This document shows positions 8,760-22,154 of a stretch of DNA of 64,000 bases, in pieces. Source of the DNA: Streptomyces sp. enrichment culture (GTDB lineage Bacteria > Actinomycetota > Actinomycetes > Streptomycetales > Streptomycetaceae); NCBI RefSeq assembly GCF_964272895.1, contig NZ_OZ186833.1:60034-124033 (forward strand), written 5' to 3'. The translations under genes were made by a program, and so were the position numbers. The notes beneath the pieces are model-generated. The model searched no databases. It saw only the letters and a program-made list of their open reading frames with translations, and was not told where the DNA came from. Positions within the stretch are counted from its first letter, which is position 1. Each line of letters starts with the position of its first letter.

Positions 8760-9628
8760 GGGGGACGACGGGACCGACGCTGTCGTTCGAGTTCTTCCCG
8801 CCGAAGACCGCCAAGGGCGAGGAGAGCCTGTGGCGGGCCATTCGGCGGGTCGAACCGCTGGCGCCCGACTTCGTGTCCGTCACCTACGGCGCCGGCGGCT
8901 CCTCACGGCACCGGACCATCGAGGTGACCAAGCGGATCGTGTCCGAGACGACGCTGCGGCCGGTCGCGCACCTGACCGCGGTCGGGCACTCGGTGGCCGA
9001 GCTGCGGCGGATCATCGGGCAGTACGCCGACGCCGGCGTGCGCGATGTGCTCGTGCTGCGCGGGGACCCGCCCGGTGACCCCAAGGGGCCGTGGGAGCGG
9101 CATCCGCACGGGTTCGACTACGCCTACCAGCTCGTCGAACTGGTGCGGTCGCTGGGCGATTTCACCATTGGGGTCGCCGCGTTCCCGGAGAAGCACCCGC
9201 GCTCGCCCGACTGGGACAGCGACATCCGGCACTTCGTCGCCAAGTGCCGGGCGGGCGCGGACTACGCCATCACACAGATGTTCTTCGACGTGGAGGACTA
9301 TCTGCGGCTGCGCGACCGGGTCGTGGCCGCCGGCTGTGACGTGCCGATCATCCCGGAGATCATGCCGGCCACGGACGTACGCCAGATCCGGCGCTTCGCG
9401 GAGCTCTCCGACGCGGCGTTCCCCGAGGACCTCGCCCACCGTCTGGAGGGCGCCCGCGAGCGGCCCGAGGAGGCGCACGCGATCGGCGTCGAGTACGCCA
9501 CCGCCATGGCGGAGCGGCTGCTCGCCGAGGGCGCGCCCGGACTGCACTACATCACCCTCAACAAGTCCACGGCGGCCCTCGACATCCACCGCAACGTGCT
9601 GGACCGAAGGACCGTCCGCACCGGGTGA
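8756..9628 (+). CDS. metF: 5,10-methylenetetrahydrofolate reductase
   Basis: [31 protein letters not shown] motifs; ATG 8756 overlaps the metH stop. Confidence 0.96.
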
Positions 9629-9648
9629 TCCCGGCCACGCCCGGGCGC

Positions 9649-9675
9649 CGTCACACTTGGCGCGCGAGCACTGTC
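9649..9675 (+). promoter_or_regulatory. ECF41-type promoter motif CGTCACA-N16-TGTC just after metF
   Basis: Identical half-sites and spacing to the motif at 1634-1660. Confidence 0.5.
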
Positions 9676-9679
9676 ATAA

Positions 9680-9800
9680 GGGTGGAGACCGAGGGCACAC
9701 CTGCTCCCCCGTCAGGAAACCCGATCCGGGACCCCTCGGTCTCCACCCCCGAAAACGCGAAAAGTCCCGGCCGCATTCCAGATGCGGCCGGGACTTTTTT
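9680..9800 (+). ncRNA. candidate structured small RNA (or structured metF 3' UTR)
   Basis: Perfect 16-bp stem 9680-9695/9733-9748 enclosing two hairpins (CCTG-CTCCCCCGT-CAGG; CCCG-ATC-CGGG); preceded by a promoter motif and followed by a terminator. Confidence 0.4.
9760..9800. terminator. bidirectional intrinsic terminator between convergent metF and phzA/B
   Basis: 17-bp perfect stem AAAAGTCCCGGCCGCAT/ATGCGGCCGGGACTTTT, 5-nt loop, A- and T-tracts. Confidence 0.9.
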
Positions 9801-9817
9801 CGTGTCCGTCTCGAGGG

Positions 9818-10351
9818 TCAGCTGCTGGGGATCCAGTCCCGCTGGATGCGCGGGGTCTCGATGCTCAGCGAGCGCATGTGCTCGATCGGGTTGGTGTACT
9901 CGCGGCTGGAGACGATACGGCCGTCACTGAGGGTGAAGCCGTGGATGAAGTGGTTGCGGTAGTGGCCGTCGGGATAGCCGGGGAAGCGGATCGTGCCCTC
10001 GCCCTCGCACTCGACCCAGATGACCGCCGGGTCGTGCGTCTCGTAGATCTGCACGTTGAACCACAGCCAGTCCGGGAGCACCTTGAGGGACAGCTCACCG
10101 TGGTGCTTGAGGTTCTCGCGGCCCCTGACGACGATGGGACGGCCGATGTCGGTGTAGAAGAGGGCGGCGCTGCCGTCCTCGGTGTACAGGGTGTAGCGGT
10201 TGAGCCGAGCGTCGGGATCGGTGTCCAGGTACCTCTCCACCGCCTGGCGGTTGCGGGCCCGCAGGTCGTGGTGGTCGGTGAACGGGGACGGCGGCACAGG
10301 GCCTCTCGAGGGGTCGGAGGCCGTCGGGGAGGGAGCGGTAGCGGCAGTCAT
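9818..10351 (-). CDS. phzA: PhzA/B-family phenazine biosynthesis protein (second copy)
   Basis: RARNRQAVERYL, PDW.W.NV.I.ET.DP..IWVECEG.G, NHFIHGF, REYTNP; start may be 10351 or 10360. Confidence 0.9.
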   Translation of the reverse strand: MTAATAPSPTASDPSRGPVPPSPFTDHHDLRARNRQAVERYLDTDPDARLNRYTLYTEDGSAALFYTDIGRPIVVRGRENLKHHGELSLKVLPDWLWFNVQIYETHDPAVIWVECEGEGTIRFPGYPDGHYRNHFIHGFTLSDGRIVSSREYTNPIEHMRSLSIETPRIQRDWIPSS

Positions 10352-10364
10352 GGCGATCACGGCC

Positions 10365-11051
10365 TCACGGCTGGAGACGGCTGATGTGCCAGCCGTCGTC
10401 TGTACGGTCGTAGCGCAGCCGCTCGTGCAGCCGGTCCGTGCCGTTGGCCCAGAACTCCACCGAGGTCGGCTCGATCCGGTACGCCACGAACGTCTCGGGG
10501 CACGGCAGCGGCTGCCCGGTGGCGCCCAGCTCCAGCGCCTTGGCGCGCAGTTCCTCGAACTCGTCGAGGTCCCTGAACGGCTTGCTCTGCCGGGAGGCGG
10601 TGGTCATCGCGTGCGTGTAGACGGCCCGCTTGAACCACAGCGCCTCCGCCTCGGCGCGGGACAGCAGACGCACCGGCCCGGCCAGCGTGATCTGCTGGCT
10701 GGTCTCGCGCCAGTACAGGACCCCGGAGGCCCACGGGTTCTCGGCGAGCTCCCGGCCCTTGCGGCTGTCGGCGTGGGTGATGATGTCGATCCCGGCGGCC
10801 GACACGGCGTTGATCGCCACGATGCGCGAGGACGTGCGGCCCTGGGCATCGGCGGTCGCGAGGGCCAGGGCCCGCGGTTCGCGCACCTCGTTCGCCACGG
10901 CGTCCTGCAGCCACTGCACGAGCAGCCCCATCGGCTCGGCGGGCGGGGTGACGAACTCGGGGAAGTCCACCGCGAGGGTGGCCGTCATCGTCTCGGAACG
11001 GGTGCTGCCGGGGCCGGCGTGCGTCACCTTTCCGTTCGTTGCCTCAGACAT
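10365..11051 (-). CDS. phzG: phenazine FMN-dependent oxidase (PNPOx family)
   Basis: REPRALALATAD, SRKGRELAENPWASGVLYWRETSQQI, RLHERLRY; ATG 11051 overlaps the phzF stop. Confidence 0.93.
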   Translation of the reverse strand: MSEATNGKVTHAGPGSTRSETMTATLAVDFPEFVTPPAEPMGLLVQWLQDAVANEVREPRALALATADAQGRTSSRIVAINAVSAAGIDIITHADSRKGRELAENPWASGVLYWRETSQQITLAGPVRLLSRAEAEALWFKRAVYTHAMTTASRQSKPFRDLDEFEELRAKALELGATGQPLPCPETFVAYRIEPTSVEFWANGTDRLHERLRYDRTDDGWHISRLQP

Positions 11052-11925: not shown

Positions 11926-13836
11926 TCAGGCCGGGTCGGGGACGCGGTCCGGCACGACCAGACCGGCCAGGGCGGTGCCCAGGATGCGCGGCCCGTCCTG
12001 AGTGAGAACGGACTCCGGGTGGAACTGCATCGACGCGAAGCCGGGGCCCCGCAGGGCATGGACCTCGCCGGTCGCCGGATCACGGCTGACGCGGACCCGG
12101 CCCAGGCCCTCGGCGGTGAACTCGTCGTCCTCGCTGACGAGGGCGAAGGTGTTGTAGAAGCCGACGTGCTCGGCGCTGCCGAACAGGTCGATCCGCTTCT
12201 GCACCCCCTGGTTGGGCACCGTCCGGCGGCGCAGCGGCAGACCGAGCCCGAGGCCGAGGACCTGGTGGCTGAGGCACACGGCGAGGAACGGGCGCCGCTC
12301 ACGCAGCAGGGTGCCCACCGCGGTGTGCAGATGGTGCATCTTCGGGTGCGCCCTCTCCTGCGGGTCGCCCGGCCCCGGCCCCATGACGACCAGGTCGTGG
12401 CCCTCGAAGGCGTAGTCCTCGTCGAAGCGGCGGACCGTCACCCGCAGGCCGAGCGAGCGCAGCTGCTGGTCGAGCATGGAGGTGAAGGTGTCCTCGGCGT
12501 CCACGACCAGCACACTGCGCCCGGCCAGCTCCGGCCGGCCGGCCGCGAAGGCGTCGCGGCCCGCGAGCCAGAAGCCGGCGATGGAGTCGTTGCGCAGCCC
12601 GAGGGCCTCGCGCACGCTGGGGTGGTCGGCGAAGCGCTGCGGTCCGCCGCCGCCGAGGGCCGCGACGAGCCCGGCCGCCTTGGCGCGGGTCTCCGCGGCC
12701 TCGGAGGCCGGATCGGAGTGGCGCACGATGGTGGCGCCGACGCCGATCCGGAGCCGTCCGGCCGGGCTGATGTCCGCGGTGCGGATCAGGATCGCGGAGT
12801 CCATGACCCGCTCGCCGGCGTCGTCGCGGCCGATGAGCGCGGCGACCCCGCTGTAGTACTCGCGGCCGCCGGGCTCGAACTGGGCGATGGTGCGGCAGGC
12901 GCTCTCCAGCGGGCTGCCGGTGACGGTCGGCGCGAACATGGTCTCGCGCAGGATGTCGCGTACGTCGCGGTCGGTGCGGCCCTCGATGAAGTACTCGGTG
13001 TGCGCGACCCGGGCCATCTCCTTGAGGTAGGGCCCGACGACCCGGCCGCCCTCGGGGCAGATGCGGGCCATCATCTTCAGTTCCTCGTCGAGGACCATGT
13101 ACAGCTCGTCGGTCTCCTTGCGGTCGTCGAGGAACTCCAGGACGCCCGACAGGGTGGGGCCCGACGCCGGATAGCGGTACGTGCCGCTGATGGGGTTCAT
13201 CACGGCCGTACCGCCCTCGAGGCTGACGTGCCGCTCGGGCGAGGCGCCGACCAGGGTGCGGGTGCCGGTGTGCACCAGGAACGTCCAGTGGGCGCCGGAC
13301 TCGCCCTGCAGCAGCCGGCGGAACAGGGCCGGGGCGCTCAGCGGGCCGTGGTCGGTGATGTCGGCGACGAAGGTGCGCTTGATGACGAAGTTGGCGCCCT
13401 CGCCGGTGCCGATCATCTCCTTGACGATGCGGCGCACCAGGTCCTCGTAGGCGTCGTCGTCGACGTCGAAGCCGCCGCCGGCGAGCGTCGTGGGGACGTC
13501 CGGGATACGGGCGAGGGCCTCGGCGAGCGGCAGCCGCTGCTGGCCGGTGACGGTCATCGCCACGAGCGGTGTGCCGTCGTCGGCGCAGGCGAAACCGCGC
13601 TCGGACAGCTGCCGGTAGGGCATGAGGGCGAGGACCTCGTGCCGGGCGCCGGTGCCGGCGGCCGGGGCCGGGGGCAGCGGGATGTCGGCGAGGGTCGCGG
13701 GCTGGGACACGGTGCCCGTCAGGACCTCGACCGCGCCGGGGCCCGTGGTGGTGGGCCGGTGCAGCAGGGCGTAGGGCTGCGACGGTTCGTCCAGCACCTT
13801 CTGGAGCAGATCGGTGTGCGGATCGGCGTGCGTCAT
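11926..13836 (-). CDS. phzE: 2-amino-2-deoxyisochorismate synthase (MST plus GATase fusion)
   Basis: [32 protein letters not shown]; GATase GPGPG, AVCLSHQ, QFHPES. Confidence 0.96.
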
Positions 13837-17507: not shown

Positions 17508-17650
17508 TGGTGCTCCCCCGTGAAGTCGGTCCTCCTGGCCTTGTCGAAGCCGCCGGCGACTCCGAAATCGATGTCTCAAGGAGTCTCGCCCAGTGGCCGG
17601 AAACAGCCGATTGGGAGTTTCCTTCGCCGACCGACTCGCTGCCACGGAAA

Positions 17651-21501: not shown

Positions 21502-21528
21502 CGTCACATCCTCGTCCAGCGGATCGTC
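21502..21528 (+). promoter_or_regulatory. ECF41-type promoter motif CGTCACA-N16-CGTC overlapping the ECF gene stop, pointing antisense into it
   Basis: Direct reading; best match of the three motifs to the recalled ECF41 consensus. Confidence 0.35.
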
Positions 21529-22154
21529 CCTATCAGCCCGTCGACGATCTCCAGGGACAGGGCCGTCAGCGCCCTGCCGGTGCGGTCGCGGAAGACCGCG
21601 CCGGGGCGGCCGTTCACCGGCCGCGTGTCCATCGTCACGCCGATGCGCACGAGTGGCGGGACGATCGCGGCGAGCACCCGCGCCACCTGTTCCGCGCCCA
21701 CGATGCGCTGCGGCCAGGGCGGCGCCTGACCGCCGCCGTCGCTCGCCCTCGACACGGCCTCCACCAGCCGCCCGGCCGCCGCCTCCGAGCACCCCACGGC
21801 CGACGCGATCTCGGCCGGACCGCACCCCAGCACCTCATTGAGCACGAAGACCGCGCGCCCGAGCGGCGACAGCCGCTCCAGCAGCACCAGGGCCGCCGTG
21901 GTCAGCGGCTCCGCGAGATCCCGGCACTCCGCGGGATCGACGCAGCGCGGCCCGTCGCCCGCCGGATGCCGCATGGACAGCGCGATCCGGGTCACCGCGG
22001 CCGGCAGGAACTCCGGGCGCACGACAGGCGCGGCCTCGTACTGGAGCCACGCCTCGTGCACCGCCTTGTCCGCCTCGTCGGCGACGCCCAGGATGCGGTG
22101 GGCGAGGCAGAACAGCACGGGCCGTGACTCCCGGAACGCTTCGGCCCGGCTCAC
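21504..22154 (-). CDS. shortened ECF41/SigJ-like sigma factor (216 aa)
   Basis: F..RPVLF.LAHRILG..DEAD.AV.EAW; LLERLSPLGRAVFVL.EV; C-terminal DGGG..IVGAEQVAR..VNGRPG SnoaL-like remnant; GGGGGAGG RBS. Confidence 0.75.
   Translation of the reverse strand: MSRAEAFRESRPVLFCLAHRILGVADEADKAVHEAWLQYEAAPVVRPEFLPAAVTRIALSMRHPAGDGPRCVDPAECRDLAEPLTTAALVLLERLSPLGRAVFVLNEVLGCGPAEIASAVGCSEAAAGRLVEAVSRASDGGGQAPPWPQRIVGAEQVARVLAAIVPPLVRIGVTMDTRPVNGRPGAVFRDRTGRALTALSLEIVDGLIGTIRWTRM

Follow-up and report, generated by a model that had tools for sequence, protein, structure and literature searches.

A candidate ECF41-driven small RNA of a rare conserved family beside some Streptomyces phenazine clusters

We analysed a 64,000-nt window (G000:C2:60034-124033) of a 7.68-Mb Streptomyces-type genome (G000), located on its second contig (C2), which is plasmid-like, 140,871 bp long and 71% GC. 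Between metF, encoding methylenetetrahydrofolate reductase, and the convergent gene phzA/B, the last gene of a phenazine operon, is a 189-bp gap that holds a structured RNA element, preceded by a promoter motif of the ECF41 type (group 41 of the sigma factors with extracytoplasmic function, ECF) and closed by a terminator (Table 1). The operon reads aroC (TTG 17507), phzA/B2, DAHP synthase, phzE-like, phzF, phzG (10365-11039) and phzA/B. Counted from the metF stop codon, the promoter motif lies 21 nt and the stem of the element 52 nt downstream. We read positions 9649-9800 as a small, independently transcribed RNA gene of ~118-121 nt from a rare, conserved family whose members lie next to some phenazine clusters of Streptomyces, and we give this reading an even chance of being correct.

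The core of the element is predicted to fold into a three-way junction in which a perfect outer stem encloses two hairpins, and a C/A-rich linker and a bidirectional intrinsic terminator follow. The parts listed in an initial annotation of this DNA, namely a 16-bp stem around two hairpins and a 17-bp terminator with six U residues, are all present, and the predicted transcription start (~9680-9683) coincides, as that annotation had noted, with the start of the perfect stem (9680-9695). The terminator is tailed by U6 (T9795-T9800) on the plus strand and by the U-rich tract UUUUCGCGUUUUCG on the minus strand; since U-rich tracts lie on both sides, it serves the convergent phz operon as well as the candidate RNA and read-through from metF. 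Fold energies were -78 to -83 kcal/mol, with z scores of -9.7 to -10.5 relative to dinucleotide shuffles. Across the 7.68-Mb genome, 364 perfect inverted repeats have a stem of at least 14 bp (293 of them noncoding), and only 9 combine a stem of at least 16 bp with a loop of at least 20 nt. Two other identities were rejected: a dispersed repeat or miniature inverted-repeat transposable element, as no second paired copy of the 16-nt stem arm occurs in the genome, and a small open reading frame (ORF), as a start codon is absent and indels among the family members break every frame.

Known ECF41 target promoters are associated with an ECF41 sigma gene, the motif being upstream of that gene, as in autoregulated ECF41 loci, or of a neighbouring gene (Wecke et al. 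2012, PMC3426412). Their signature is TGTCACA-n16(+/-1)-CGTC, with TGTT and TGTC as -10 variants and a G at the start site (PMC3426412). The motif before the element (P3) agrees with the -35 consensus TGTCACA at 6 of 7 bases, carries the listed -10 variant TGTC and has a spacer of exactly 16 nt. The whole genome contains 10 GTCACA-N16-TGTC sites, 4 of them on the 141-kb contig C2, where the chromosomal rate and third-order Markov simulations both predict ~0.11 (~35-fold enrichment). None of 300 Markov simulations attained 3 such sites, and the Poisson probability of 3 or more is 2e-4. The sites P1-P3 lie in noncoding DNA and P4 overlaps only an over-long ORF of the crude gene call; P1 and P2 are correctly oriented towards their genes, for a major facilitator superfamily (MFS) efflux transporter and for a SnoaL_4 protein followed by a multicopper oxidase. 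The ECF41-type promoter that the initial annotation had placed at 9649-9675 is thus strongly supported by its fit to the consensus, by the enrichment on the contig and by a sister site before a SigJ-like sigma gene.

At least five ECF41/SigJ-like sigma genes are encoded on C2 (2195-2827, 6408-7262, 13136-13540, 46921-47911 and 81540-82187), so that the sigma factor serving P3 is one among several candidates. Those at 13136-13540 and 81540-82187 (216 amino acids (aa)) appear shortened. Our best guess, judged from sequence, is the 329-aa protein encoded at C2:46921-47911, whose best NCBIfam match is SigJ (191.7 bits) and which also matches SigX4, placing it in the ECF41 group. We prefer it because P3 and P4, the site before its own gene, have their -35 region in common, with 15 identical bases (CCGTCACACTTGGCG). 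The 216-aa protein is a possible, though not the best, cognate sigma. As separate observations, a second flavour of the motif (CCTCACATTCCGG-N10-TGTC) occurs at C2:4412 and C2:11668, and a GTCACA-N16-CGTC site at window positions 21503-21528 (+) runs across the stop codon of the oppositely oriented 216-aa sigma gene; this last site may be either a promoter for antisense transcription or a coincidental match within coding sequence.

Table 1 Features of the candidate RNA locus, its sister promoter sites and neighbouring genes (window positions unless prefixed C2)
Feature	Position	Strand	Details
Three-way-junction RNA core	9680-9748	+	Outer stem enclosing hairpin 1 and hairpin 2
Outer stem	9680-9695 with 9733-9748	+	Perfect 16 bp; GGGTGGAGACCGAGGG with CCCTCGGTCTCCACCC
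Hairpin 1	9700-9716	+	CCTG / CTCCCCCGT / CAGG
C-rich loop of hairpin 1	9704-9712	+	CUCCCCCGU
Hairpin 2	9720-9730	+	CCCG / ATC / CGGG
C/A-rich single-stranded linker	9749-9759	+	CCGAAAACGCG, 11 nt; unpaired probability 0.8-1.0
Bidirectional intrinsic terminator	9760-9800	both	17-bp stem, 9760-9776 with 9782-9798; 5-nt loop
P3, ECF41-type promoter	9649-9675	+	-35 CGTCACA 9649-9655, 16-nt spacer, -10 TGTC 9672-9675; predicted start ~9680-9683
P1	C2:59478-59503	-	49 nt 5' of 499-aa MFS transporter (efflux) gene; full TGTCACA
P2	1634-1660	+	CGTCACA-N16-TGTC; 68 nt 5' of SnoaL_4 gene (ATG 1728), then multicopper oxidase gene
P4	C2:46860-46886		~35 nt 5' of ATG of 329-aa SigJ-like sigma gene (C2:46921-47911)
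aroC Shine-Dalgarno (SD) region	17511-17521	-	ACGGGGGAGCA; 11 nt complementary to 9702-9712; 3 nt before TTG start 17507
Shortened SigJ/ECF41-like sigma gene	21504-22154	-	216 aa; NCBIfam SigX4 116 bits versus cutoff 323
metF (methylenetetrahydrofolate reductase)	8765-9628	+	Pfam MTHFR 1.6e-96; stop TGA 9626-9628
phzA/B, last phenazine-operon gene	9818-10360	-	Convergent with RNA element; Pfam PHZA_PHZB 3.1e-61; stop 9818

Homologues of the element are few. A BLAST search of 40 relatives and 400 genus genomes returned only the metF and phzA/B ends plus one weak match, in genome G265, which later proved to be a true homologue. The exact stem pattern had 0 matches in the genome contigs, and the plasmids of PLSDB matched neither the intergenic region nor the homologous elements. 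A first covariance model, built on the single sequence 9678-9755, found the G265 homologue (C1:8118-8177) among the 400 genus genomes, and it also picked out a member in Streptomyces sp. NPDC029674 (G435; C35:7227-7303, equivalent to L049:4970-5046) among 80 phzA/B loci. Covariance-model scores were 37-61 bits for G265:C1:8112-8186 and 44-89 bits for G435:C35:7227-7303. Each of the two elements is within ~1-1.5 kb of a phzA/B gene, and directly 5' of it stands an ECF41-type motif, CCTCACA-N16-CGTC in G265 and CCTCACG-N16-CGTC in G435. Further matches were discarded: those in genomes G048, G135 and G040 fall within coding sequence, lack the C-rich loop and were judged to be chance. A metagenome scan with the hairpin-1 17-mer gave 120 loci; the covariance-model screen of the 80 listed loci produced a sole match, L147, which is dubious (27 bits, with no promoter motif).

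The three members have the same architecture, with a three-way junction, a ~11-nt linker and then a GC hairpin (z scores of -10.5, -7.3 and -4.1 in G000, G265 and G435, respectively). The conserved stem core GGAGACCGAG is 8 nt away from the -10 element in both G000 and G265, and the stem begins ~4-5 nt past the -10 element in G000 and, with its extended stem, G435; from this spacing, the predicted transcript of all three begins at the stem or a few bases from it. In the model-fitted alignment of the three sequences, 7 of the 16 outer-stem pairs are compensatory, and pairing extends to 98.5% of cells. Of 500 column shuffles a single one attained these values, and slid controls fell to 34-56% paired. 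The stem of hairpin 1 is invariant and its loop nearly so (CUCCCCCGU, UUCCCCCGU and UUCCCCCGG; consensus YUCCCCCGK), and hairpin 2 has AUC, CCG or UG as its loop. The search for conservation and covariation proposed in the initial annotation hence bore out the element, with two Streptomyces homologues behind ECF41-type motifs and compensatory pairs in the stem.

The promoter motif recurs with its gene set as well. In G265, CCTCACA-N15/16-CGTC precedes genes for a 166-aa membrane protein, a 312-aa ECF41 sigma and an MFS protein that is the orthologue of the G000 MFS pump (60% identity). The 312-aa sigma is a canonical ECF41 factor with WIPEP and NPEKL motifs, and its G000 orthologue (65% identity) is encoded at C2:6408-7262. 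The RNA element therefore travels with an ECF41 regulon that is attached to a subset of phenazine clusters. A further CCTCACA-N16-CGTC site, at G435:C35:8598-8623 (+; L049), points antisense into the 3' end of phzA/B.

Gene order around the three copies bears on whether the RNA stands alone. In G000 and G435, the promoter motif and downstream hairpin are followed by a convergent gene (phzA/B in G000, a multicopper oxidase in G435), and in G435 the upstream polyprenyl synthetase gene has its own hairpin and U8 terminator before the promoter motif. G265 is the exception and the sole member with a co-directional gene after the element, which there occupies the position of a 5' untranslated region (UTR): promoter, element and a strong 19-bp GC hairpin are followed ~170 nt on by a gene for a WrbA-like flavin mononucleotide (FMN) reductase on the same strand. 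This order would suit an attenuator- or riboswitch-like 5' leader that acts in cis on a gene under ECF41 control, for instance that of the WrbA-like quinone reductase in G265; the G000 and G435 copies would then be leaders orphaned by rearrangement. Oxidoreductases are classic ECF41 targets (PMC3426412), and Streptomyces sp. Ru71 has metF and then wrbA at the equivalent site, convergent with phzA/B. We nevertheless think a leader unlikely, given that Ru71 carries wrbA without the element, that the G000 copy closes with a canonical terminator and that two of the three copies have no co-directional gene downstream and kept their structure through seven compensatory changes. Because two of three copies are free-standing yet structurally maintained, an independent small RNA (sRNA) is favoured over a leader. 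The central proposal of the initial annotation, an ECF-driven, structured and terminated short RNA, is accordingly one that motif enrichment, the conserved regulon and covariation support at the level of sequence.

The stem-loop might instead be a stabiliser of the metF 3' UTR, an auxiliary terminator or a DNA palindrome, with the promoter-like motif unused. It lies close behind the metF stop codon in a gap flanked by convergent genes, a setting in which long hairpins are frequent, the genome holds many noncoding perfect inverted repeats (the 293 counted above), and the Watson-Crick-only changes in its stem mean that both strands can fold. We regard this as quite unlikely: a canonical terminator stands 11 nt further on, the upstream gene in G435 is already terminated ahead of the promoter motif, and the motif keeps a fixed distance from the element in all three genomes. 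In addition, conservation of the C-rich loop is strand-specific, and no element lies 3' of metF in genome G221 or in Ru71.

Several points weigh against an independent small RNA gene that acts through its loop. The covariation comes from three sequences in an alignment fitted to the model, and every compensatory change stems from one of them, G435. All stem changes are from one Watson-Crick pair to another, with no G-U pairs, so the pairs alone neither identify the strand that folds nor exclude a palindrome at the DNA level. Among the 400 other Streptomyces genomes sampled, 399 lack the element, as do 49 of a further 50 genomes with phz genes. Neither G265 nor G435 has a U-tract past the downstream hairpin, and in G265 read-through into the wrbA-like gene is possible. 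The C-rich loop in G000 is partly accessible, with an opening energy of 5.6 kcal/mol and unpaired probabilities of 0.2-0.95, and when start regions were compared among the three contigs, no orthologous gene paired well in all three.

The initial annotation had assigned the loop a specific target, the ribosome-binding site of aroC. The sequence identity behind this assignment is real: TGCTCCCCCGT (9702-9712) equals the plus strand at 17511-17521, the reverse complement of the aroC SD region. A dedicated trans-acting repressor would occlude this site and thereby limit the supply of chorismate and phenazines. In its favour, the 11-nt complementarity is perfect, includes the SD sequence and lies 3 nt from the TTG start of a gene that heads the co-directional phz array. 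In energy terms the predicted pairing is reasonable: opening costs of 5.6 and 4.3 kcal/mol stand against a core of 11 bp, and the estimated net energy is favourable. With hairpin 1 alone, aroC comes third among 107 start regions of the plasmid. The match is statistically ordinary all the same. Perfect complementarity of at least 11 nt to the 36-nt junction interior occurs at 178 genomic sites (136 of 11 nt, 34 of 12, 7 of 13 and 1 of 15), and several of the longer sites (12-15 nt) fall at credible start regions. In 35-nt start-region windows aroC ranks 266 of 4,227; in wide windows with unconstrained duplex energies it ranks 2,111 of 5,340, a measure that is uninformative, with unrealistically long GC duplexes. 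The pairing is not distinctive because G-rich SD sequences (GGGGGAG/GGGGGAA) are frequent in these clusters.

Related clusters also speak against this target. In G265 and G435, the cluster as far as sequenced includes the RNA and lacks aroC, and its first phz gene is a phzA/B paralogue. No start region in the first 30 kb of G265 has at least 9 nt of complementarity to the loop, and the first phz gene of G435 has merely ~6 nt. We thus consider a dedicated aroC repressor unlikely, and aroC is only one of several equally good candidate targets. Others shared by two genomes are the SD of the multicopper oxidase gene (G000 and G435), phzA/B2 (G000 and G435) and KAS III (G000 and G265). A further candidate, the ABBA prenyltransferase of G265 and G435, has a loop base U or G that matches a target base A or C; this single intermolecular covariation is suggestive, and the G000 paralogues lack it.

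A generic anti-SD role for the C-rich loop is plausible, and pairing in trans with G-rich SDs would be its most likely function, to judge from the anatomy and by analogy with the 6C sRNA discussed below. A fuller circuit can be sketched for some phenazine and meroterpenoid clusters, in which an ECF41 sigma responding to stress induces an efflux pump and oxidases and the sRNA lowers translation of aroC in this strain or of the ABBA prenyltransferase in G265 and G435; we hold this to be speculative and rather doubtful. The RNA might otherwise bind a protein or a small molecule, for example to sequester an RNA-binding regulator or, by way of the three-way junction, to sense a metabolite of the phenazine or quinone type. 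Such roles would suit the stems of hairpins 1 and 2 and the loop, which are invariant instead of covarying, as expected for sequence-specific recognition, and no conserved mRNA target was found. They are very unlikely in our judgement: no partner stands out as a candidate, three sequences do not suffice to tell invariance from short divergence time, and actinobacterial sRNAs are known for pairing with mRNAs through C-rich loops (PMC6486639).

The analysis shows the features of the sequence, the enrichment of the promoter motif, conservation and covariation; that the RNA is transcribed, starts at the site given below, depends on a sigma factor and acts by base pairing is what we infer. A plasmid-encoded SigJ/ECF41-like sigma, for which the 329-aa protein (C2:46921-47911) is the best candidate, would recognise CGTCACA-N16-TGTC. 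The transcript would start at ~9680-9683 and hence open with the 16-bp stem, which would close the three-way junction and display the conserved C-rich loop CUCCCCCGU; it would end at ~9800, at the shared bidirectional terminator. The RNA would belong to the same regulon as the MFS efflux pump, the SnoaL/multicopper-oxidase operon and the sigma gene itself. Its loop may pair in trans, without a chaperone, with G-rich SDs (GGGGGAG/GGGGGAA) and so lower translation of at least one mRNA while the sigma factor is active.

The initial annotation had also called for a search against known RNA families, and Rfam gave no match for any of the three members. Nothing reached the gathering score over the window, 6C was unmatched over 9550-9900 even at E values up to 10, and the G265 and G435 copies were likewise without a family match. 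The best Rfam score went to the alphaproteobacterial sRNA ar14 (RF02344), in which a terminator hairpin likewise comes after a hairpin whose loop is of the CCUCC type; its 23.6 bits fall short of the gathering score (58.8), it belongs to another phylum, and the likeness is architectural only.

In enterobacteria, the sigma-E-dependent sRNAs MicA, RybB and MicL provide a repressing arm to an ECF sigma factor that by itself only activates. MicL has its own promoter close to the upstream gene and uses the terminator of that gene, and the present element would be alike in both respects. Unlike these three RNAs, it would depend on an ECF41/SigJ-like sigma with a fused C-terminal domain and no anti-sigma factor, it would act without Hfq, and it has no sequence relation to them. 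The sister sites resemble published ECF41 loci in that one precedes a SigJ-like sigma gene on the same contig (PMC3426412). Published ECF41 regulons consist of only the adjacent COE gene (carboxymuconolactone decarboxylase, oxidoreductase or epimerase; PMC3426412), whereas the units headed by the motif here stretch across 23 kb and comprise an MFS pump gene, a SnoaL-multicopper-oxidase operon and a non-coding RNA.

The closest functional parallel is the 6C sRNA of Actinobacteria (B11/6C in M. tuberculosis), which uses C-rich loops to bind several mRNAs, without chaperones (PMC6486639). Both are small structured RNAs of high-GC Gram-positive bacteria with a C-rich hairpin loop presumed to pair with G-rich mRNA regions and with no need of an Hfq-type chaperone. 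They differ in that 6C has two C-rich hairpins, whereas the element has a single five-C loop, that of hairpin 1, within a junction closed by a 10-16-bp stem. Also unlike 6C, the element is very rare, forms part of a biosynthetic cluster carried by an accessory replicon and stands behind an ECF41-type promoter.

If the fuller circuit sketched above is real, the element would bring a non-coding member into an ECF41 regulon for the first time, and Streptomyces secondary metabolism would gain its first family of conserved small RNAs specific to a cluster. It would provide ECF41 sigma factors, which are widespread, with a repressing arm. The circuit would also offer a compact handle on the balance between making redox-active phenazines and self-protection. 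To our knowledge, post-transcriptional control within Streptomyces antibiotic clusters is almost unexplored, and the element would be a new RNA family, with promoter, structure and covariation, in a phylum with few mechanistically understood small RNAs. The practical gain is modest, with the element as a possible small knob in pathway engineering.

The surroundings of the element vary between genomes. A wrbA-like FMN reductase gene lies between metF and phzA/B in Streptomyces sp. Ru71 (L036 3560-4400) and 3' of the RNA element in G265 (L116 2889-3503), and the gap in our window holds the RNA element alone, without wrbA; the metF-phzA/B junction is a rearrangement hot spot. At the start of the window, a gene for a monooxygenase dependent on flavin adenine dinucleotide (FAD_binding_3; 1-1289, -) is split over the overlapping frames 681-1289 and 4-861, and the split points to a frameshift, a pseudogene or a mistake in the assembly.

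The genome holds other inverted-repeat structures. Two long perfect hairpins with the common arm GCAGTTCCCCGCGCCCC, at G000:C1:1264907-1264979 and C1:3336547-3336608, look like a dispersed intergenic repeat family unrelated to the RNA element. On the plasmid-like contig, a perfect noncoding 18-bp inverted repeat (TGATTACGCCGTAATCAC ... GTGATTACGGCGTAATCA, with a 26-nt spacer) lies at G000:C2:16477-16538; each of its arms holds a near-palindrome of its own, and the repeat may function as an operator or in replication or partition.

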